64,000 nt of DNA from an uncultured Solirubrobacteraceae bacterium (lineage in GTDB: Bacteria; Actinomycetota; Thermoleophilia; Solirubrobacterales; Solirubrobacteraceae): contig CAVRHJ010000007.1 in the NCBI GenBank assembly GCA_963720975.1, forward strand, positions 417,995 to 481,994, written 5' to 3'. Position numbers and translations under genes: made by a program. This document shows, one piece after another, positions 13,053 to 22,884 of the stretch. The notes below the pieces were generated by a model. The model ran no database searches and had not been told where the DNA came from. It saw nothing but the letters and a program-made list of their open reading frames with translations. Each line of letters begins with the position of its first letter. Position 1 is the first letter of the stretch.

Positions 13053-14405
13053 CTATGCGGCGCGGGCACGGGCGCGCTGGCCGCGCTCGACGAAGTCGAT
13101 GATCAGCGGCACGCCGTCCATCCCATAGCGGGCGCGCAGCCGGTTCTCGACGAAGTACGCGTAGTCGCGCGTGACTCGTGTACGCGAGTTGACCTGGATC
13201 GCGAAGCGCGGCGGGCGCTCGCCGATCTGGGTCATGTAGATCAGTTTCAGGCGATGCCCGCCGGCGCCACGGCGGGTGCCGACCGGCGGCTGGCGCGCCT
13301 GGACGGTCTCGGACAGGAAGCGGTTGAGCTCCGGGGTGGGGATGCGCCCGGACATGCGGTCGCCCAGCGCAATCGCCTCGCTCAGCAGGCGCGAGGCGTG
13401 CCTGCCGGTCTTTGCGCTGACGGTCAGGACGCGCGGACGCAGCCGCAGCTTTTCGGCCACGCGCGCTCGCTCGTGCTCGAGATCGACACCAACGCCCTCA
13501 GCATCCTCGCCGCGCTCCTGCATGTCCCACTTGTTCAGCACGATCGCGGTGGCGCACCCAGCCTTCATCGCGAGCTCGGCGACGCGCAGATCCTGTGCGG
13601 TGACGCCGTCCCCGGCGTCGCACACGACGAGCGCGACATCCGCGCGCTCGGCCGCGCGCTGGGAGCGCAGCGCCGTGTAGTACTCGACTGAGTCGGCGAC
13701 CTTCGACTGGCGGCGCATGCCGGCGGTGTCGACGAGGATCAGCTTTCGCTCACCGACCATCAAAGGCGTGTCGATCGCGTCCCGCGTCGTGCCGGCGAGA
13801 TCGGAGACGATCACGCGCTCCTCGCCGAGAAAGCGGTTCACCAGCGAGGACTTGCCGACGTTGGGCCGACCGATCACGGCCAGCCGGACCGTGTCGTCCG
13901 GCTCTGCGACATCGCCCGCCGGCAGCAGCTCGACTATCCGATCGAGCAGATCCCCCGAGCCGAGGCCCTGCGCCGCGGATACCGCCATCGGCTCGCCGAG
14001 GCCGAGCCGATGAAACTCACTCGCGAGCGGCACCTCGACGACGCTGTCGCACTTGTTGGCAGCGACGATCGTCGGCAGCGGCGCGCGGCGTAGGAGGTCC
14101 GCCATCTCCTCATCGCCCGGCCGGACCCCCGCGCGCGCGTCGACGACCAGCACCCCGACGTCGGCGTCGGCGATTCCCGCCCGGGCCTGGTCGCGGATTG
14201 AGCCGGCAAGCGGATCTTCGTCCTGGAAGTCCACGCCCCCGGTGTCGATCAGCGTGAAGCGGCGCCCGTTCCACTCGCAGTCGAGCTCCTTGCGATCGCG
14301 GGTCACTCCCGGGCGCTCGTGCACGACCGCCTCGCGGGTGCCCGTCAGACGGTTGATCAGCGAGGACTTCCCCACGTTTGGATATCCGACAATCGCGACC
14401 TTCAT
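13053..14405 (-). CDS. der: Ribosome biogenesis GTPase Der (EngA)
   Basis: Two tandem G domains ([16 protein letters not shown] and [16 protein letters not shown]) plus KH-like tail. Confidence 0.97.
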
Positions 14406-14442
14406 CAGGCCAGTATGACTGGCGTGGGCGCCTGCTCGGACC

Positions 14443-14801
14443 TCAGGCGAGCGTGGAGCCGGGGAGGCCGAGGATCAACGACAGTGCTCGGTCGATCTCG
14501 CCGAGGGTCTCCGGCGCGAGTGAGCCAAGGTGGCGCAGCATTCCTGCTCGGGAGACCGAGCGAATAGCACGGCAGATCGCACGACTCTGTCGATCGACGC
14601 CCGCCAGCCGCGGCACCTCCGGACGTAGCGCCGAGGGAGCACGCGAGCTCGACAGCGGCACGACCACGATCAGATCGTCGGCTGTGCCGCTGTTCAGCGC
14701 GTCGACGGAGACCACGACCGCCGGACGATTCTTCCCCGGCTCGCCATCCTTCCCGCCCCAAACGAGACGAGCCACACCTCGCCGCGGCGCGGTTCAGTCA
14801 A
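14443..14801 (-). pseudogene. mazF: MazF/PemK toxin (MazF7-like) with 1-nt frameshift
   Basis: TTG 14801 gives MTEPRRGEVWLVSFGAG; the rest (KDGEPGKNRPAVVVSV...LSLILGLP) is in the -1 frame. Span is 359 nt, and one G appears to be missing at 14752-14759. Confidence 0.85.
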
Positions 14802-14901
14802 GGCCATCGACCAGAACGCTCTCCCATACACGGTCCTCGACGCCGACATCGCCGCTCTGGGCGTCGCGAACGCTGGCCTCGCGCTCGGAGCGCCAGATCG
14901 C
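14794..14901 (-). pseudogene. mazE: C-terminal fragment of a MazE7-like antitoxin with no start codon
   Basis: AIWRSEREASVRDAQSGDVGVEDRVWESVLVDGLD*, ending in overlap with the toxin start. An in-frame stop lies a few codons upstream and no N-terminal DNA-binding half is present. Confidence 0.7.
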
Positions 14902-14938
14902 TATGGCCCGGCAATAGCACTATGGCCCGGCGATAGCG
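14900..14938. repeat. 19-bp tandem repeat, each unit an imperfect palindrome
   Basis: ctatggcccggcaatagca / ctatggcccggcgatagcg, with (G)CTAT-N9-ATAGC symmetry. Confidence 0.85.
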
Positions 14939-15584
14939 ACCTCATTAGCTCGACGATGCGCGCGACGACCTGCTCGACGCTCAGGCCGGTGGTGTCGAGC
15001 GTGACGGCGTCGGCTGCGGAGTGCAGGGGACTGTGCGTGCGCGTGCTGTCGCGCTCGTCGCGCATGGCCTGCTCGGCGAGCACCATCGCGACGTCGGCGC
15101 CGAGCTCGCGTGCGCGCCGCGACGCCCGCTCGCGCGGGTCGGCCGTAAGGAACACCTTGAGCTCGGCGTCAGGCGCGACCACGGTGCCGATGTCGCGCCC
15201 CTCGGCGACCCAGTTGCCGCTGGCAATCAGCTCGCGCTGCTTGGCGACGAGCGCCTCGCGTACGTCAGGGTCGGCAGCCAGGACGGACGCGGCATCGCTG
15301 ACCTCGGGGGCACGGATCGCGTCGGTCACATCACGCCCGTCGAGCAGCACCCGGCGCGACTCGGCAGTCGGCCCGCCGCCGGGATCGATCGCGACCCCTC
15401 GAGCGATCTCACCGAAGATCGCCGGGCGCTGCGGCAGCACGCCCGACCCCTGCTCGAGCGCCGCCAGCGCCACGCTGCGGTACATCGCGCCACTGTCGAG
15501 GAAGGTAAAGCCCAGCTGACCCGCGAGCGCCCGCGCAACCGTTGACTTGCCCGCGCCGGCGGGACCGTCGATCGCTACGAGCAC
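14901..15584 (-). CDS. cmk: Cytidylate kinase
   Basis: AIDGPAGAGKST, LDSGAMYR, EGRDIGTVV and RDERDSTR. Confidence 0.96.
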   Translation of the reverse strand: MLVAIDGPAGAGKSTVARALAGQLGFTFLDSGAMYRSVALAALEQGSGVLPQRPAIFGEIARGVAIDPGGGPTAESRRVLLDGRDVTDAIRAPEVSDAASVLAADPDVREALVAKQRELIASGNWVAEGRDIGTVVAPDAELKVFLTADPRERASRRARELGADVAMVLAEQAMRDERDSTRTHSPLHSAADAVTLDTTGLSVEQVVARIVELMRSLSPGHSAIAGP

Positions 15585-16870
15585 AGCTTCGAGAGGTCCT
15601 CGACGAAGCCCGGGTAGGACACCGCGGCGGCCTCCATGCCGAGGACCTCGACCCCCTCGCGCGAGGCGAGCCCGGCGACCGCGCCCAGCATCGCCATGCG
15701 GTGGTCGCCGTGGGCGTCGATCGTGCCGCCGCGCAGGCCACCGGTGCCGCGAACCTGGAAACCGTCCTCGCTGGCCTCGATCTCGGCACCGAGCCCGCGC
15801 AGCCCGTCGACGACCTCCGCGATCCGGTCTGTCTCCTTGACGCGCAGCTCCTGCGCACCGCGCACGACCGTCTCACCCTCGGCGAAGCAGCCGAGCAGTG
15901 CGACCAGCGGTAGCTCGTCGATCGCAAGCGGGACCTCGTCGGGCTCGACGGTCGTCCCCTCGAGCGACCCGTGGGCGACGTCGAGGTCGCTGACCGGCTC
16001 CTCGCCGACGAGCTCGCCGCTCTCGTCCTCGAGATCGCCGAGCACGATGCCGCGCATGCGGCGCACGATCCGCAGGAAGCCCGTACGCGTCCAGTTCACA
16101 CCGACATCGCTGATCAACAGCCGAGAGCCGGGCACGAGTACGCAGGCGGCGATCATGAACGCAACCGAGCTCGGGTCGCCTGGTACACGAACGCGGTCGA
16201 GCAGCAGCTCATCGGTGTTCACGACCGTGACGTGTGTGCCGTTGCGATGGATTGTCACGCCCGCGCGCAGCAGCATCCGCTCGGTGTGATCGCGGCTGCG
16301 GGCCGGCTCGCCAACCGTCGTGGCGCCGTCGGCGGCGAGCGCCGCAAGCAGGATGCACGACTTGACCTGGGCGCTGGCGACGTCGAGCTCGTAGGAGATC
16401 GCGCGCAGCCGCGCGCCACGAACTTCGAGCGGCGTGAAACGCCCCTCGCGCGCCTGTAGATCCGCCCCCATCTGGCTCAGTGGCGTGGCGATTCGATTGA
16501 CCGGGCGACGGCGGATCGACTCGTCGCCGTCGAGCACGAACGAGCGCCCCTCCTGTGCCGCGAGCCAGCCGGGGAGTAGTCGCAGCAGTGTGCCGGCGTT
16601 GCCGACGTCGATCGTGGCGTCGGGCTCGCGCGCCTCGCGCAGACCAGTGCCGCGGATCACCAGATCCTCGCCGTGGATCTCCACGAGCGCCCCGAGTGCG
16701 CGCACCGCATCGAGTGTCGAGCTGGTGTCGGCGGCGTGTAGATAGCGCTCGATCCGCACTGGTTCGGAGGCCATCGCGCCGAGCAGCGCGGCGCGATGCG
16801 AGATCGACTTGTCGGCCGGCGCGGTTATCTCGCCGGAAAGTCCGCGGGCGGGCTCGAAGCGCATGTTCAT
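15575..16870 (-). CDS. aroA: 3-phosphoshikimate 1-carboxyvinyltransferase (EPSP synthase)
   Basis: DKSISHRA, GNAGT, SAQVKS, RDHTERML, ELRVKETDR and DHRMAM. Start placed at 16870. Confidence 0.96.
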   Translation of the reverse strand: MNMRFEPARGLSGEITAPADKSISHRAALLGAMASEPVRIERYLHAADTSSTLDAVRALGALVEIHGEDLVIRGTGLREAREPDATIDVGNAGTLLRLLPGWLAAQEGRSFVLDGDESIRRRPVNRIATPLSQMGADLQAREGRFTPLEVRGARLRAISYELDVASAQVKSCILLAALAADGATTVGEPARSRDHTERMLLRAGVTIHRNGTHVTVVNTDELLLDRVRVPGDPSSVAFMIAACVLVPGSRLLISDVGVNWTRTGFLRIVRRMRGIVLGDLEDESGELVGEEPVSDLDVAHGSLEGTTVEPDEVPLAIDELPLVALLGCFAEGETVVRGAQELRVKETDRIAEVVDGLRGLGAEIEASEDGFQVRGTGGLRGGTIDAHGDHRMAMLGAVAGLASREGVEVLGMEAAAVSYPGFVEDLSKLCS

Positions 16871-16880
16871 CGGGCAGCCC

Positions 16881-18047
16881 TCATGCTCGCACGACTGGGA
16901 AACCGAGGCCGGCGACGAGCTGGCGCGCGCGCTCGAATGGCTCCTCGCCTGCGATCCACAGCGACACGACACCCTGGCTGTTGTCCTGTGACGGGGACAG
17001 CACCATGTCGAGGATGTTCACGCCGGCGTCACCGAGCGCGAGTGCGATCTCGGCGATCACCCCCGGACGGTTGGGCACCGACGCGCGCAGCTCGCTAACC
17101 GACTCCCCCTCCGCGCCACCGGCGAGGCCGGCGCCGAGCAGCGCCTCGTGGTCGACGCGCGCACGCTCGTTCCAGCTCGTCAGCGCCACAGCCTGGCCCG
17201 TGGCGAGCCACGCGCGCACCTCCTGCAGACGCACTGCGAACTCGTCGATCCCGGCGATCAGCGCCTCGCGGTTGGACATGTAGATGTCGGTCCAGATCGC
17301 GCTGTTGGCGCCGGCAACGCGCGTCGCGTCGCGGAAGCTCGGGCCAACGGCCGGCAGCCGCTCGAACGTCCCGCCCGGCCGTTCGTCTGCCGCCGCAGGC
17401 TCCCCGTCGCTCGCTGCGGGGCTTTCAGCGCGGGGAGCGAGCAGTTCGGCTGCCTGGGCGACGAGCAGGTTCGCGAGCACGTGCGGAAGGTGCGAGACGC
17501 ATCCCATCAGCCGGTCGTGTGTCTCGGCGTCGATCGCCTGCGGCCGCGCTCCGAAGCGGCTCAGCAGCCGGTGTAGGCGCTCGTAGAGCACGCCGGCCGT
17601 ACTCCCTTTCGCCGGCGTCAGGTACCACGTAGAACCGTCGAATAGATCCTCGCGGGCATGCTCGACGCCAGCGGTCTCGGCGCCTGCCAGCGGGTGTCCG
17701 CCGACGAAGCGCTCATCGCAGCCGGCATCGGTACCCTGAAGGGCACAGGCGAGCACACGCTTGGTCGAGCCGACGTCGGTGACGACGCAGTCCGCCCCGG
17801 CGCCGGCGAGCGCCAGGCCCACCGTCTCAGCGAGCGCCCCCACGGGGGTCGCGACGAACACCACGTCGGCGCCGTCGACAGCCGCGGCTACATCCGCGGC
17901 CTGTGTGCCGATCGCGCCCAGCTCCAGCGCCCTCGCGCGCACGCGCTCGTCCGGGTCATATCCGCAAACCTCGGCGTCAGCGCGAGCTCGCGCGGCCAGG
18001 CCGATCGAGCCGCCGATCAGCCCGACGCCGAGGATCGCCACCTTCAA
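16881..18047 (-). CDS. tyrA: Prephenate/arogenate dehydrogenase with C-terminal ACT domain
   Basis: GVGLIGGS, TDVGSTK, FVGGHPLAG, HDRLMGCVSHLPH; ACT motif VPNRPGVIA. Confidence 0.93.
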   Translation of the reverse strand: MKVAILGVGLIGGSIGLAARARADAEVCGYDPDERVRARALELGAIGTQAADVAAAVDGADVVFVATPVGALAETVGLALAGAGADCVVTDVGSTKRVLACALQGTDAGCDERFVGGHPLAGAETAGVEHAREDLFDGSTWYLTPAKGSTAGVLYERLHRLLSRFGARPQAIDAETHDRLMGCVSHLPHVLANLLVAQAAELLAPRAESPAASDGEPAAADERPGGTFERLPAVGPSFRDATRVAGANSAIWTDIYMSNREALIAGIDEFAVRLQEVRAWLATGQAVALTSWNERARVDHEALLGAGLAGGAEGESVSELRASVPNRPGVIAEIALALGDAGVNILDMVLSPSQDNSQGVVSLWIAGEEPFERARQLVAGLGFPVVRA

Positions 18048-18072
18048 GGAGCGTGTCCCATGGCGCGCCCCA

Positions 18073-19107
18073 TCAGACCGCGCTGAGCGCCTTCCCGGCG
18101 AGCGCGGCGGCCTGCTCGACGGCGAGCGCGTAGGACGCGAAGTCCTCCGCTCTCAGCGCCTGGGGCCCGTCGCAGATCGCCTCGTCAGGGTTCGGGTGAA
18201 CCTCGACGATGATGCCGTCCGCTCCGACCGCTGCTGCGGCCAGCGACAGCGGCGTCACCAGATCGCGCCGGCCGGCCGCGTGGCTCGGGTCGACGATCAC
18301 CGGCAGATGCGTGAGCTCCTTCAGCACCGGCACGGCCATCAGATCGAGCGTGAAGCGGTAGGCGGTCTCGAACGTGCGGATCCCCCGCTCGCAGAGCATC
18401 ACGTTGGGGTTGCCTTCCTTGAGGATGTACTCGGCCGCCATCAGCAACTCATCGAGCGTCGCCGACAGCCCACGCTTCAGCAGCGCCGGACATCCGGAGC
18501 GGCCGATCTCGGCGAGCAGCGGGTAGTTCTGCATGTTGCGCGCGCCGATCTGGATCACGTCCGCGACCTCGAGCACTGCGTCCAGATCGCCGATGTCCAT
18601 CAGCTCGGTGACGATCGGCAGCCCCGTCTCGGCCTTCGCCTCGGCGAGCAGCCGCAGGCCCTCCTGGCCGAGTCCCTGGAAGGCGTACGGGGAGGTGCGC
18701 GGCTTGTACGCGCCGCCGCGCAGCAGCGTCGCGCCGGCATCGCGCACGACGCGGGCGGTCTGCATCATCTGATCGCGCGACTCGACCGTGCACGGCCCGG
18801 CGATCATCGCGAAATGCTCGCCACCAACCTTGCGCCCGTCGATCTCGAGAACGCTGCGCTCACCGTGTTTGATCTGCGCGGAGGCGAGCTTGTACGGCTT
18901 GAGGATCGGCACGACACGATCGACGCCAGGCTGGCCTTCCAGGCCGAGGCCCTGGACGGTCACGTCCTGCTCGACGTCGCCGATCGCACCGATCACCGTC
19001 ACGCGCGCGCCCTGACTGCGGTGGGCGAGCGCGCCGGCACGCTCGATCTTCTCGACGACCGCCTCGACCTCCTCATCGGTCGCGGTCTCCTTCATAACGA
19101 TCATCAT
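18073..19107 (-). CDS. aroF: DAHP synthase, class I-beta, with N-terminal regulatory domain
   Basis: [40 protein letters not shown] and DPSHA; AAAGGA RBS. Confidence 0.95.
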
Positions 19108-19115
19108 CTACTCAT

Positions 19116-19330
19116 CCTTTCACTGACGCCTGGGCATGTTAGAGGTGCTGTCCGTCACCGAGATCGAGGCCGTCGGGGGGCCTGCGACGTTCGGACCGTG
19201 AGAGGTGCGCTGGGAGCACCCGCAGGGGTGGCGCTCGGTCCCCGCTCGGGACCCGGTGCGGCCGCCGTCACCCGCTCACGGACGGGCAGAGGCCGAAGCG
19301 CCTAGCTAAATCGCCAGGCGCGATAGGCGC
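19116..19330 (-). promoter_or_regulatory. Structured leader RNA between the leader ORF and aroF
   Basis: 7-bp stem GCGCCTA/TAGGCGC (19324-19330 with 19298-19304) with inner ATCGC/GCGAT; further stems CCGTC/GACGG, GGTCCC/GGGACC and CACCC/GGGTG. No U-tract. Confidence 0.55.
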
Positions 19331-19394
19331 AGCGAGACGACCACGCAGCTTCTACGCGAGAGATCGAGGCGGATGTTCTGCTCGATGTGCTCAT
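19302..19394 (-). CDS. Putative attenuation leader peptide of aroF (30 aa)
   Basis: Hand-translated MSTSSRTSASISRVEAAWSSRCAYRAWRFS*. W18, Y24, W27 and F29 cluster before the stop. Confidence 0.7.
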   Translation of the reverse strand: MSTSSRTSASISRVEAAWSSRCAYRAWRFS

Positions 19395-19494
19395 GGCCGT
19401 CCCAGCTTTTTAGCAGACGCGCGGCACGTAGTCGAGCGGTGAGAGACGATTCGGCTGGACGCGCGGTCAGCTACGGACAGGCGCTAGGGCCCAC

Positions 19495-20583
19495 TCAGGC
19501 TGCGAGCACCTCGGAGAGCGCGTCAAGGAAACGCACGTTCTCCTCTGCCAGCCCGTATGTGACACGCAGCGCGGGTGTCTCGCTGCCGAGCGCAACGCCA
19601 CCGCGTACGAGCACGCCGCGCTCGCGCAGGCCGCGCATGACATCCTGCTCGTCGAGCTCGGTGCCCAGGTGAAACCAGCAGAAGTTCGCCTGCGAGTCGG
19701 CCGGCTCGATCCCGAGCGCGCGCAGCCGCTCATCGACGGAGATCCGCTCGGCGACCGTGCGCGTGACGCGCTCGATCACCGCGTCCTGGTGGGCGAGCGC
19801 CTCGACGGCCGCGGCCTGGGCGAGCGCGTTGCAGAAGAACGGCTGGCGAACCTGGTCGAGCGCGCGGGGCAGCTCCTCCGAGCCGCACAGCGCGAAGCCG
19901 ACGCGCAGGCCGCACAGGCCGTGGACCTTCGAGAACGTGCGCAGCAACACGAGGTTCGGGTGGGCGTCGAGCAGCTCGATCGAGGAGTCCGGGTCCTCGA
20001 GCAGGTTGAACTCGCAGTAGGCCTCGTCGACGATCACACACACATGCCGGGGCACCTCGGCGAGAAAGCCGGCGATGTCGGCGAGCGGGATCGCCGTGCT
20101 GGTGGGGTTGTTCGGGTTGCAAACGAGCACCAGCCGAGTCGCGACGGTGATCTCGGCGAGCATCGCCTGCAGGTCGTGGCGCTCGTCAGCGTCGAGCGCC
20201 ACGGTCACCGCGCGGGCGCCGGAGGCGGCGGCGAGGTGCGGGTAGACCGAGAACGACGGCCATGCGTACACGAGCTCGGCGCCCGACTCGAGCAGCGCCT
20301 CGCCGGCCGCCAGCAGGATGTCGCATGAGCCATTGCCGATCGCGATCCGCGACACGGGCACGCCGTAGCGGTCGCGGAGCTTGCTGCGCAGCAGCAGGTT
20401 GGATGGGTCGGGATAGCGGTTGAGCTGGTCGAGCGCGTGCTCGATCGCCTCGCGCACGGCCGTCAGCGGAGGGTAGGGCGACTCATTGCTGGCCAGCCGC
20501 ACCAGCGGCTCCTGCTGCGCGTACCCGCCGGCCGCCGGATAGCTGGGAATCCGTCGTACGCGCTGTGAGAACTCGATCGCCAC
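19495..20583 (-). CDS. hisC: Histidinol-phosphate/aromatic aminotransferase
   Basis: LASNESP, NRYPD, CNPNNPT, VDEAY and LRTFSKVHGLCGLRVG. Confidence 0.93.
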   Translation of the reverse strand: MAIEFSQRVRRIPSYPAAGGYAQQEPLVRLASNESPYPPLTAVREAIEHALDQLNRYPDPSNLLLRSKLRDRYGVPVSRIAIGNGSCDILLAAGEALLESGAELVYAWPSFSVYPHLAAASGARAVTVALDADERHDLQAMLAEITVATRLVLVCNPNNPTSTAIPLADIAGFLAEVPRHVCVIVDEAYCEFNLLEDPDSSIELLDAHPNLVLLRTFSKVHGLCGLRVGFALCGSEELPRALDQVRQPFFCNALAQAAAVEALAHQDAVIERVTRTVAERISVDERLRALGIEPADSQANFCWFHLGTELDEQDVMRGLRERGVLVRGGVALGSETPALRVTYGLAEENVRFLDALSEVLAA

Positions 20584-20652
20584 GTGCCTATTGTGCCGAG
20601 CGCCCGCACTAGGCGCGGATTCCTGCGCGGGAGCGCCCGCGCAGGGCGCGGA

Positions 20653-21018
20653 CTACTGCGCTGCCTGCAGGTCGGCGCGCAGCGCCCGCGCGTCGCCGAG
20701 ATAGACGTGCGCGGGCACGTGCTCGACCTGTGCGTAGTACTGGATCAGGACCCGGATCACGCGCGGCATCGACCGTGGTACGGGGATCTCCTGCGCGCAC
20801 AGCAGCGGCACGCGGTCGAAGCCGACGGCGCGCGCGGCCACCGCGGGAAACTCGGCGTTGAGGTCTCTCGTCGCGGTGAAGATGCAGCTGACGACGTTCT
20901 CCGGCTGGAGCGCGTTGCGCTCCATGATCTCGCGCATCAGCGCGGTCGTCGCATCCAGGATGTCCTGGGCGTCGTTGCGCTCGACGCTAACGGCCCCGCG
21001 GAGGGCGAACAGTCGCAT
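20653..21018 (-). CDS. aroH: AroH-type chorismate mutase
   Basis: ALRGA, FTATRDLNAEFPA, PRVIRVL and YLGDARALRAD. Start ATG 21018. Confidence 0.93.
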   Translation of the reverse strand: MRLFALRGAVSVERNDAQDILDATTALMREIMERNALQPENVVSCIFTATRDLNAEFPAVAARAVGFDRVPLLCAQEIPVPRSMPRVIRVLIQYYAQVEHVPAHVYLGDARALRADLQAAQ

Positions 21019-21032
21019 GGCGCGCGATTCTG

Positions 21033-21785
21033 TCAAAGCGGACCCTCTCCGGGGGCATCCCCCATGGCGGGGGACGAGCAGGTGAGCGCGCGCAGGCGCT
21101 CGAGGTCTGCGTCGCTCAGCCGCCGGTGCGAGCCCGACGCCAAGCCGTCGAGCGCCAGCGGCCCGAATCGCGTGCGCGTCAGCTCGAGCACCGGATGCCC
21201 GACCGCCTGGCACATCCGGCGCACCTGACGGTTGCGGCCCTCGTGGATCGTCAGCTCGATCAGATTCGAGCCCGCCTTCCCGGACCGGCGCACAGCCGCG
21301 GGTGCCGTGAGCCCGTCCTCGAGCCGCACGCCCGTACGGAGTTCCTCCAGGGCATCGTCCGCGATCGATCTGCCGCCGAGCTTCGCGCGGTAGGTCCTCG
21401 GGACTTCGAAACGCGGGTGGGTCAGGCGGTTGGCTAGCTCGCCGTCGTTCGTCAGCAGCATCAGCCCGGTGCTGTCAATGTCGAGCCGTCCGACCGGGTA
21501 GAGGCGCAGCCCGCCTGCGGGCACGAGCTCCACGACCGTGCGCCTGCCGTGGGTGTCGCGCGCAGTTGAGACGACGCCGATTGGCTTGTTGAGCGCGAAC
21601 AGCGCGCGCGGCTCGGGCCCGCTGAGCGTGCGTCCATCGACCGCTACGACGCTGTTCTCATCGACATCGCGTGCAGGGTCTGTCACCGGGACCCCCGCGA
21701 CAGACACGCGCCCGGCCGCGATCATCTGCTCGGCAGCACGCCTGGAGGCGACGCCGGAGTGGGCGAGGAACTTCGCTAGGCGCAT
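21033..21785 (-). CDS. rluB: rRNA pseudouridine synthase, RsuA/RluB family
   Basis: S4 domain MRLAKFLAHSGVASRR, NKPIGVVST, VGRLDIDSTG and EGRNRQVRRM. Confidence 0.9.
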   Translation of the reverse strand: MRLAKFLAHSGVASRRAAEQMIAAGRVSVAGVPVTDPARDVDENSVVAVDGRTLSGPEPRALFALNKPIGVVSTARDTHGRRTVVELVPAGGLRLYPVGRLDIDSTGLMLLTNDGELANRLTHPRFEVPRTYRAKLGGRSIADDALEELRTGVRLEDGLTAPAAVRRSGKAGSNLIELTIHEGRNRQVRRMCQAVGHPVLELTRTRFGPLALDGLASGSHRRLSDADLERLRALTCSSPAMGDAPGEGPL

Positions 21786-21870
21786 CGTCGCGTGTCGGTG
21801 GCGAGCCTCATGTGCTGCAACCATAGGACGCAACCGCGCACGCCCGGTGAACACCGGCGCCGGGTCGACC

Positions 21871-22884
21871 ATGGATCTTCAGCAGCTCGAGCACACGCTC
21901 GCCGATCGCGGCGAGCCTCCCTTTCGCGCACGCCAGGTGTGGGCTTGGGCGACGCGCGGCGCGCGGGGCTATCAGGAGATGACCGACCTGCCCTCGCCGC
22001 TGCGCGAGATGCTGGCGCGCGAGCTCCCGTTCTCGAGCCTGACTCTGCGCGAGCAGGCGCACTCCGACGACGGGACCGTGAAGGCGCTGTTCTCGACCGT
22101 CGACGGGCGCCCGTTGGAGGCGGTCCTGATGCGCTACCGCGACCGCCGACGCTCGATCTGCGTCTCCTCGCAGTCGGGCTGCCCGCTGACTTGCAGCTTC
22201 TGCGCGACCGGGACGATGCGCTTCGCGCGCAACCTGAGCAGCTCGGAGATCCTCGACCAGGCACTGCACTTCCGCCGCATCGAAGCGATCGACCATTGTG
22301 TGTTCATGGGCATGGGCGAGCCGATGATGAACCTCGACAACGTGCTCGCCGCGTGCGAGCGCCTGCCGGATCTCGGCATCACGCACCGGCGCACGACGAT
22401 CTCGACCGTCGGCTGGATCCCCGGGATCGAACGCCTCGCCGAGCAGCCGATGCCGCTGCGCTTGGCGCTGTCGCTGCACGCGGCCGACGAAGCGTTGCGC
22501 TCGGAGCTGATGCCGGTCAACGAGCGTTACCCGCTGAAGGACGTGCTGGCGGCCTGTCGCGCGTTCTACGAGCGCAAGCGGCGGCGCGTGTTCATCGAGT
22601 ACGTGATGCTCGCCGGCGTCAACGACCGTTACGAGCAGGCGCTCGCGCTGGCGAAGGCGCTGACCGGCGAGCGCGACGGAGCGCCGTCGATCTTCAAGGT
22701 CAACCTGATCCCCTACAACGCCACCGACTCCGGCGGCGGCACGCCGTTCGACGGCTCGAGCCGTGAGTCGATCGCGGCATTCCGCGCTGCGCTGCAGGCG
22801 CATGGCGTGCCCGCGACCGTACGCCTCACACGCGGCAGGGACATCGCGGCCGCGTGCGGGCAGTTGGCCGCCAGCGCCGGCTGA
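21871..22884 (+). CDS. rlmN: 23S rRNA A2503 C2-methyltransferase, radical SAM
   Basis: CVSSQSGCPLTCSFCATG (CxxxCxxC), FMGMGEP, SLHA, NLIPYN and RGRDIAAACGQL. Confidence 0.95.
   Translation: MDLQQLEHTLADRGEPPFRARQVWAWATRGARGYQEMTDLPSPLREMLARELPFSSLTLREQAHSDDGTVKALFSTVDGRPLEAVLMRYRDRRRSICVSSQSGCPLTCSFCATGTMRFARNLSSSEILDQALHFRRIEAIDHCVFMGMGEPMMNLDNVLAACERLPDLGITHRRTTISTVGWIPGIERLAEQPMPLRLALSLHAADEALRSELMPVNERYPLKDVLAACRAFYERKRRRVFIEYVMLAGVNDRYEQALALAKALTGERDGAPSIFKVNLIPYNATDSGGGTPFDGSSRESIAAFRAALQAHGVPATVRLTRGRDIAAACGQLAASAG

Follow-up and report, generated by a model that had tools for sequence, protein, structure and literature searches.

In Corynebacterium glutamicum, a leader peptide with the residues Phe-Tyr-Phe is encoded upstream of aroF (Mentz et al. 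2013, PMC4046766), and two further papers state, in passages that cite Neshat et al. 2014, that transcription of the aroF operon rises when Phe is limiting and not when Tyr is (PMC11802643, PMC7356990). A comparative survey of Actinobacteria did not come upon any RNA element in the Phe and Tyr pathways, and noted that actinobacterial leaders often act on the Shine-Dalgarno (SD) sequence and not via terminators (Seliverstov et al. 2005, PMC1262725). Here we describe a probable ribosome-mediated leader-peptide attenuator that would sense aromatic amino acid supply and control the DAHP synthase (aroF) operon of an uncultured Solirubrobacteraceae bacterium. It lies on the minus strand of contig CAVRHJ010000007.1, within a stretch of 64,000 nucleotides (nt) that we refer to throughout as the window, in a 387-nt spacer that is flanked by a hisC-type aminotransferase gene (19495-20583) on one side and by the DAHP synthase gene on the other. 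An earlier note on this DNA, made from the letters alone, had pointed out a 93-nt open reading frame (ORF) in this spacer with Trp, Tyr, Trp and Phe codons late in its sequence, and had proposed that its translation senses all three aromatic amino acids on behalf of the operon. The ORF is in the sequence as that note described it, with its aromatic residues at W18, Y24, W27 and F29, and equivalents occur in about 95 related loci. The core of the proposal is backed by comparative evidence, namely the conservation of the reading frame, a promoter, a covarying helix that abuts the stop codon, and the association of the leader with two classes of DAHP synthase.

The aroR-aroF leader of C. glutamicum is the closest precedent for this arrangement. 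Both leaders are actinobacterial, both consist of a short mixed-aromatic ORF directly upstream of a DAHP synthase gene, and the proposed logic, in which stalling at aromatic codons raises expression, is the same. The C. glutamicum peptide differs in carrying Phe-Tyr-Phe without Trp and in being described as a transcription attenuator, whereas the leader of the window combines Trp, Tyr and Phe, ends in W-R-F-x-UAG, is followed by a helix that starts at the stop codon, and has no U-tract terminator; we liken the two by function, not by sequence homology. With the enterobacterial trpL, pheL and hisL leaders, the window shares a short promoter-proximal ORF with pathway-product codons in its last third, and a stop codon immediately before region 2 of the alternative helices, so that a terminating ribosome would mask region 2. 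Those leaders, however, are each devoted to one amino acid through tandem codons and end in a hairpin and U-tract, whereas here the codons for three amino acids are interspersed, and no canonical terminator was found in 76 loci. Given the Phe-Tyr-Phe leader already known at aroF (PMC4046766; PMC11802643), the uniqueness that the earlier note implied for a multi-aromatic sensor does not hold, and a leader of this kind at a DAHP synthase gene is not new in principle. Judging from the comparative sequence evidence, the attenuator is real and conserved across many loci, in a lineage from which no leader-peptide attenuator had been known. Our literature search found no description of Solirubrobacter leader peptides, and searches of Rfam and the literature found no such element in Thermoleophilia, in agreement with what that note had supposed.

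We collected 80 loci with relatives of the window's DAHP synthase from GTDB species genomes, nearly all of them Solirubrobacterales/Thermoleophilia metagenome-assembled genomes (MAGs), at 60-91% protein identity. The order hisC, a spacer of 170-650 nt, and DAHP synthase gene is found in 43 of these loci, and nearly all 43 syntenic spacers contain an ATG-started ORF that ends in [Y/F/W]..W-R-F-x-stop (for example SSCAYFAWRFI, SYWSFRCAWRFS, ARFYAWRFS and GYAYAYAWRFS, each followed by the stop). The TGGCGATTT core, which occurs only once within the window, is present in exact form in 41 of the 43 syntenic loci, all of which were found via protein homology and independently of the motif. The W-R-F codons are identical in those 41, only the x codon varies within the W-R-F-x-stop block, and the stop codon is UAG wherever it was read. 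A scan of the genome collection with the pattern TGGCGATTTNNNTAGGCG added further Solirubrobacterales loci, for a total of about 95 distinct leaders from Solirubrobacterales/Thermoleophilia, and also returned chance matches in unrelated low-GC phyla that lacked the context. The conserved short ORF and covarying stem for which the earlier note had proposed a test in relatives are both found, in the form of W-R-F-x-stop in these leaders and of the helix described below. The N-terminal part of the leader is not conserved across loci, and a Pfam search with the 30-residue peptide gave no match; a functional small protein from this ORF is thus unlikely.

The aromatic codons upstream of the conserved block are a feature of a single reading frame. 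Over the 12 codons before the invariant Trp, W, Y and F make up 24% of residues in frame. Reading the other two frames gives 5% and 2.4%, the DAHP synthase coding sequence has 3.4%, and positions -1 to -4 before this Trp are 29-58% aromatic. Because the nucleotide sequence upstream of the block varies freely, we attribute this enrichment to the reading frame itself. The choice of synonymous codons is also unusual, with TAT accounting for 51% of Tyr codons in leaders versus 2% in DAHP synthase coding sequences, and TTT for 27% of Phe codons versus 2.4%, and the Arg codon preceding Phe is always CGA. The T-ending aromatic codons and the fixed CGA suggest that either slow decoding or a particular RNA sequence has been selected.

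The DAHP synthase gene starts 100-250 nt downstream of the leader across loci, and it is not always the same kind of gene. In a large subset of the motif-bearing loci, the next gene encodes not a class I-beta enzyme but a protein of 360-370 residues with the motifs GPCSVHD, KPRTTxGWKGLINDP and GARTTESQxHRQ, which is an aroFGH-type (class I-alpha, AroG-like) DAHP synthase (NCBIfam TIGR00034, 480 bits). The same leader, stop context and helix thus stand ahead of two distantly related DAHP synthase classes, I-beta or I-alpha, according to lineage. Since these two classes are not orthologous, the leader marks control of the committed aromatic step, rather than the shared ancestry of one operon.

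We found that the leader appears to be confined to part of Solirubrobacterales. The more distant Thermoleophilia in our set (loci L058-L080, from Gaiellaceae, Miltoncostaeaceae, Baekduia and others, at 60-64% DAHP synthase identity) mostly have no upstream hisC homologue by tblastn, and in several of them the DAHP synthase gene abuts or overlaps the upstream ORF by a rough ORF heuristic, leaving no space for a leader. Two Solirubrobacterales-like hisC-aroF clusters carry unexpected taxonomic labels. One (L018/L143, CAJCHW010000211.1, labeled Chlamydiae bacterium) has 80% identity to the window's DAHP synthase and contains the leader and the helix; in the other (L063, CAMCDF010000036.1, labeled as a Bifidobacterium breve MAG), at 63% DAHP synthase identity, no leader motif was found. 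Both labels look like binning or labeling errors.

Alignment of the spacers with MAFFT revealed two conserved blocks, CCTGGCGATTTAGCTAGGCG(C) and, 40-75 nt downstream, CCG[A/G][G/A]CGCC, which together form a helix of 9-11 base pairs (bp) that we call P1; in the window, its arms pair as GGCGCUUCGG with CCGAGCGCC. Within an alignment of 78 sequences, 91.3% of P1 cells are paired, as against 34-46% in slid controls, a percentage that is inflated by the pairing criterion used in choosing these loci, although the 3' block was also recovered by plain MAFFT alignment. Covariation is evident at pair 28:118 (CG in 41 sequences, UG in 23, UA in 14) and at pair 29:117 (CG in 37, UA in 36, UG in 5). Double-sided changes amount to 54 cells versus 19 ± 11 in shuffled alignments, and none of 500 shuffles reached 54. 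Similarly, a helix of at least 8 bp within 100 nt was found in 82% of loci and in 10.6% of shuffled sequences. P1 encloses one or two hairpins, the first of which (hairpin a) has a stem that covaries between CCCG/CGGG and CUCCG/CGGAG. The intergenic region as a whole folds no better than shuffled sequence (minimum free energy z = -0.30).

Ahead of the leader, an extended -10 element (TGnT[AT]nA..) is present in 78 of 96 loci, and a -35-like hexamer at 17-nt spacing from it is kept in relatives. By its sequence, this is a sigma-70-type -35 / extended -10 promoter. The leader start codon follows the -10 element by only 7-15 nt, so the leader mRNA would be leaderless or nearly so, and there is no SD sequence ahead of the leader ORF. 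Synthesis without a ribosome-binding site (RBS) has been reported for the C. glutamicum ilvB leader peptide, as PMC4046766 relates it from its reference 42. Related sequence came only from soil, peat and permafrost metagenomes and metatranscriptomes. In three of four soil or permafrost metatranscriptomes (X21, X22 and X27), contigs from relatives join the leader motif (about 19271-19297) to the start of aroF (about 19111-19133), skipping the variable middle. These contigs are suggestive, although not decisive, of co-transcription of the leader with aroF. The coordinates of all features are collected in the table.

Table. Features of the leader region and of the DAHP synthase gene in the window, in the order of transcription
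Feature	Position	Strand	Remarks
-35-like hexamer TCGACT of the leader promoter	19430..19435	-	17 nt upstream of the -10-like hexamer; TCGAC[TG] or TTGCC[GA] in relatives
Extended -10-like element TGCTAAAAA	19407..19415	-	motif TGnTACAAA; TGCTACAAA in relatives
Leader ORF	19302..19394	-	93 nt, 30 codons, MSTSSRTSASISRVEAAWSSRCAYRAWRFS and stop; kept in about 95 loci
Leader aromatic codons	W18 19343-19341, Y24 19325-19323, W27 19316-19314, F29 19310-19308	-
Block TGG CGA TTT AGC TAG GCG	19299..19316	-	W-R-F-x-stop and start of P1
Candidate hairpin H1 (1:2), GCCUGGC / GAUUUA / GCUAGGC	19300..19319	-	overlaps the Trp codon, the stop codon and the P1 5' arm
P1 5' arm (region 2), GGCGCTTCGGCC	19291..19302	-	first base is the G of the UAG stop; GGCGCTTCGG at 19302-19293
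Hairpin a in the P1 domain, CCCG / UCCGUGAG / CGGG	19271..19286	-	loop CGUGAG kept in the close clade
Hairpin c in the P1 domain, GGGUCCC / GAGC / GGGGACC	19237..19254	-	a hairpin at this position in the close clade, sequence varies
P1 3' arm (region 3), GACCGAGCGCC	19230..19240	-	CCGAGCGCC at 19238-19230
Candidate region 4, GGGUGCUC	19214..19221	-	resembles region 2; could form 7 bp, one of them G.U, with GAGCGCC of region 3
Pyrimidine-rich segment CCUCUCACGG	19196..19205	-	CUCACGG complements the hairpin-a loop CCGUGAG; 7/8 complementary to the RBS in the window only
Candidate second promoter, TAACAT and CCAGGCG	19127..19141 (TAACAT 19141-19136)	-	-10-like box and purine start, directly upstream of aroF
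SD sequence GAAAGGA of the DAHP synthase gene	19115..19121	-	kept as GAAAGGA in the alignment
DAHP synthase gene, class I-beta, with N-terminal ferredoxin-like regulatory domain	18073..19107	-	first gene of aroF-tyrA-aroA; Pfam PF00793, PF18152; NCBIfam PRK08673, TIGR01361

P1 is not the hairpin that had been drawn in the earlier note. That hairpin, GCGCCTA (19330-19324) with TAGGCGC (19304-19298) plus ATCGC with GCGAT, has its arms in the window, but the GCGCCTA arm is found in only 5 of 96 loci, and we rejected it as a conserved structure. A pairing of CCTCTCAC (19205-19198) with GTGAAAGG (19123-19116) at the aroF RBS, which the note had put forward as well, does exist in the window at 7 of 8 positions, but it is not kept in the closest relatives, where the site reads CCAACTCACGG (L184) or CCTCCTCACGG (L156) and the GTG of GTGAAAGG varies to TTG or CTG. 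We therefore rejected this pairing as a conserved RBS sequestrator. The same pyrimidine-rich element forms part of another contact: in the close clade (for example L111, L128, L171 and L181), the CGUGAG loop (19280-19275 in the window) is complementary to one to three copies of CUCACG downstream of P1 (19202-19196 in the window), and locus L166 shows a compensatory change, with loop CGCGAG and downstream CUCGCG. This contact is possibly a pseudoknot or an alternative pairing. The statement that GC stems without a U-tract follow the leader was borne out by the sequence and by the relatives.

Other pairings around P1 could complete an attenuator. The cells of H1, which would correspond to a 1:2 pairing, are paired in 82% of cases, and because its core is invariant, H1 is uninformative by covariation. 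In most lineages, region 3 is followed at a variable distance by a segment similar to region 2, and from the sequence of this segment we infer that it may serve as region 4. Several loci with short spacers show complementarity of the SD or pre-SD sequence to region 3 or to the 3' flank of region 3 (for example GCGCCUUUC versus GAAAGG in the L188/L117 group). A pairing of region 3 with the pre-SD CCAGGCG as a universal region 4 was ruled out, as the lineages with GGACGCC in region 3 have CCAGCG and show no compensation. Rfam gave no match at gathering thresholds in the 64-kb window, and a permissive search of the region returned only chance-level hits with E values of at least 1.3, such as mraW at 16.6 bits against a threshold of 50. 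T-boxes, the known Trp, Phe, His, Leu and Thr leader families, and riboswitches were rejected given this lack of Rfam matches. ARAGORN found no tRNA-like gene in the region, and a TRAP-like protein site of (G/U)AG repeats was set aside as there are too few repeats.

From these features, we infer how stalling, the ON and OFF states and the output step might work. The leader promoter would start a transcript whose first feature is the leaderless or nearly leaderless 30-codon ORF, in which codons for Tyr, Phe and Trp are enriched over roughly the last 10 positions. Once UAG is in the A site, the ribosome shields some 12 nt beyond it, and this stretch is the P1 5' arm. If the A site is occupied instead by the invariant UGG, exactly four codons before the stop, protection extends only to the U of UAG, so that P1 just escapes it. 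A ribosome that stalls at one of the enriched positions farther upstream covers no more than the leader side of H1. When aromatic amino acids are plentiful, charged tRNAs would allow the ribosome to reach the stop codon and mask region 2, and region 3 would then pair downstream, with the region-2-like segment or near the ribosome-binding region, giving the OFF state. During a shortage of Trp, Tyr or Phe, the ribosome would stall at the Trp codon or at the aromatic codons just upstream, covering region 1/H1 and not region 2. P1 could then form, the translation-initiation region of the DAHP synthase gene would stay open, and the pathway would be raised, giving the ON state.

An intrinsic terminator, taken as a hairpin with at least 5 T in 8 nt, was found in none of the 76 loci, nor in a scan of the window, which excludes classical intrinsic termination, and we do not place the leader in the classical terminator subclass. 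Because no canonical terminator exists, we favor an output at translation initiation as the most likely one, to which termination by Rho on RNA that is not being translated probably adds. Translation-initiation control has also been proposed for other high-GC leaders without terminators, such as the actinobacterial LEU element at leuA and SD-sequestering T-boxes and riboswitches (PMC1262725). The LEU element is also similar in having a leader ORF and a structured domain with a base stem, but its Leu codon run pairs with the SD sequence, and we found no conserved pairing between leader codons and the SD sequence here. We compared two states in an equilibrium model, one with the ribosome at the Trp codon (P1 allowed) and one with the ribosome at the stop codon (region 2 masked). 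The modeled accessibility of positions -30 to +10 around the DAHP synthase start was greater by more than 0.05 in the P1-allowed state in 20 loci and was reversed in 4. In the window, SD accessibility was 0.70 versus 0.42 between the two constraints (0.68 versus 0.42 in a rerun).

Several observations weigh against this model or limit it. The mean difference in accessibility is small (+0.03), the Wilcoxon test on it (p = 0.0014) is overstated given that the loci are phylogenetically related, and the SD window alone (-16 to +3) shows no consistent switch in the equilibrium model across loci. In the window, P1 has a probability of only about 0.01 in the stalled state of that model, so co-transcriptional kinetics must be invoked. 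P1 alone has covariation support across all clades, and the H1 and 3:4 pairings are possible without such support. Stalling at the conserved Phe codon, two codons ahead of the stop, would itself place the ribosome over the first bases of P1, and codon sensing does not account for why CGA and UUU are conserved exactly. As regards transcription, the metatranscriptome contigs may contain DNA. In addition, 43 of 76 loci have a TAnnnT box (TAGGAT, TAGAGT and TAAGAT are among the variants in relatives) at -30 to -37 relative to the DAHP synthase start, with a short pyrimidine run and then AGG after it, against a background of about 0.006 per locus. This sequence suggests a second promoter whose transcripts would bypass the attenuator, and if that proximal promoter is real, the attenuator would modulate the read-through component only.

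Alternatively, the same sensor could act purely through Rho-dependent transcription attenuation, which is the main rival to translational control and one that we regard as possible but on balance doubtful. Under this explanation, C-rich untranslated RNA past region 3 would load Rho, and P1, upon forming during stalling, would hide or displace the loading site and allow read-through into aroF. Rho is a major terminator in high-GC actinobacteria. Its involvement would fit the lack of canonical intrinsic terminators as well as the CUCACG-type pyrimidine-rich repeats downstream of P1, and the segment from P1 to the RBS contains 36% C versus 28% G, with C exceeding G in 79% of loci, compared with 33.5% C and 35.5% G in the DAHP synthase coding sequence. 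However, this C/G skew, at about 1.3, is modest, the leader ORF shows it just as much, a defined rut element is lacking, and the shortest loci have only about 35-60 nt between region 3 and the start codon, which leaves little loading room before a ribosome binds at the DAHP synthase gene. A different possibility is that the polarity is opposite, as in erm-type translational attenuation, such that P1 represses unless a ribosome held at W-R-F-x-stop melts it and frees region 3 to open the initiation region. The codons closest to P1 are indeed the conserved ones, the P1 5' arm lies under the ribosome whenever UUU, the x codon or UAG occupies the A site, and P1 is the thermodynamically dominant local helix in most loci (mean probability of about 0.8 when unmasked). 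We nevertheless consider this opposite polarity unlikely, as the enrichment of the variable aromatic codons peaks 5-8 codons ahead of the stop, where a stalled ribosome falls short of P1, and the modeled initiation region is slightly more open with P1 formed, by the count of loci given above.

It is also conceivable that the leader does not read tRNA charging at all. In a TnaC-like arrest, the nascent W-R-F-x peptide would detect, inside the exit tunnel, either a free aromatic amino acid or an intermediate, and would thereby prevent release at UAG. The leader does resemble tnaC-tnaA in that conserved residues, including Trp, lie at a fixed distance from the stop codon (W, R and F do so in the 41 loci found independently of the motif), in that a ribosome at the stop, which here adjoins the regulatory helix, would decide the fate of the downstream RNA, and in the lack of an intrinsic terminator. 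Arrest at TnaC is coupled to Rho-dependent termination, and the one observation here that bears on such coupling is the modest excess of C over G downstream. TnaC, however, senses free Trp and induces a catabolic operon, whereas a biosynthetic operon such as this one should respond to the lack of its product and not to its presence. Moreover, the conservation extends to the nucleotides of CGA and UUU, beyond what selection on the peptide alone would give, and the adjacent variable positions are frame-specifically rich in aromatic residues with rare synonymous codons, which is a signature of codon or tRNA-charging sensing. Nascent-peptide arrest of this kind is therefore quite improbable. A last explanation is that the ORF is untranslated and that the conserved block and P1 act purely as RNA, either as a protein- or ligand-binding leader or as the 3' end of the hisC transcript. 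The block reads equally as PGDLARR and LAI-stop in the other two frames, and no SD sequence precedes the ORF, although leaderless or SD-less leader ORFs are known in actinobacteria (the ilvB leader, in what PMC4046766 cites as reference 42). Upstream of the block, only frame 0 stays open from the start codon and is rich in aromatic codons, hisC and the ORF are separated by a promoter, and there is no match to any Rfam family, all of which make a purely RNA-level role very improbable.

Within the attenuator that we favor, W-R-F-x-UAG with its fixed CGA and UUU and its fixed four-codon spacing to P1 could go beyond supplying sensor codons and form a module dedicated to arrest or pausing, which would keep the ribosome at the end of the ORF and, with translation or Rho as its route, need no terminator. 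Such a pause might stem from the nascent peptide, from CGA and UUU being decoded slowly, or from slow release at UAG. We attach only a small probability to this extension of the model. If true, this would set the leader apart by mechanism, as a class of sensor that dispenses with a terminator and combines three amino acids where the shikimate pathway begins.

Within the aromatic gene cluster, the attenuator is found midway along and not at the head. On the minus strand, the order is aroH (chorismate mutase), hisC, the spacer, aroF, tyrA (prephenate dehydrogenase, with an ACT domain), aroA (EPSP synthase), cmk and der (13053-21872), which we take to resemble the aromatic supraoperon of Bacillus subtilis, where hisC and tyrA are likewise linked with aro genes. 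An antisense open frame of 514 codons (17761-19305, plus strand) spans the DAHP synthase gene and part of the leader region. We did not take it as a gene, since such frames are expected by chance in DNA of 68% GC.

These results provide a concrete regulatory element for the Thermoleophilia/Solirubrobacterales, soil actinobacteria that are abundant and nearly unstudied, and for which there was no described amino acid attenuator or Rfam match. The leader ORF, its promoter and P1 merit annotation in these genomes, and a covariance model could be built from our alignment. The comparative set of about 95 species, in which a leader mixes Trp, Tyr and Phe codons without a canonical terminator, is also relevant to the workings of attenuation in high-GC bacteria, which rarely have U-tract terminators.

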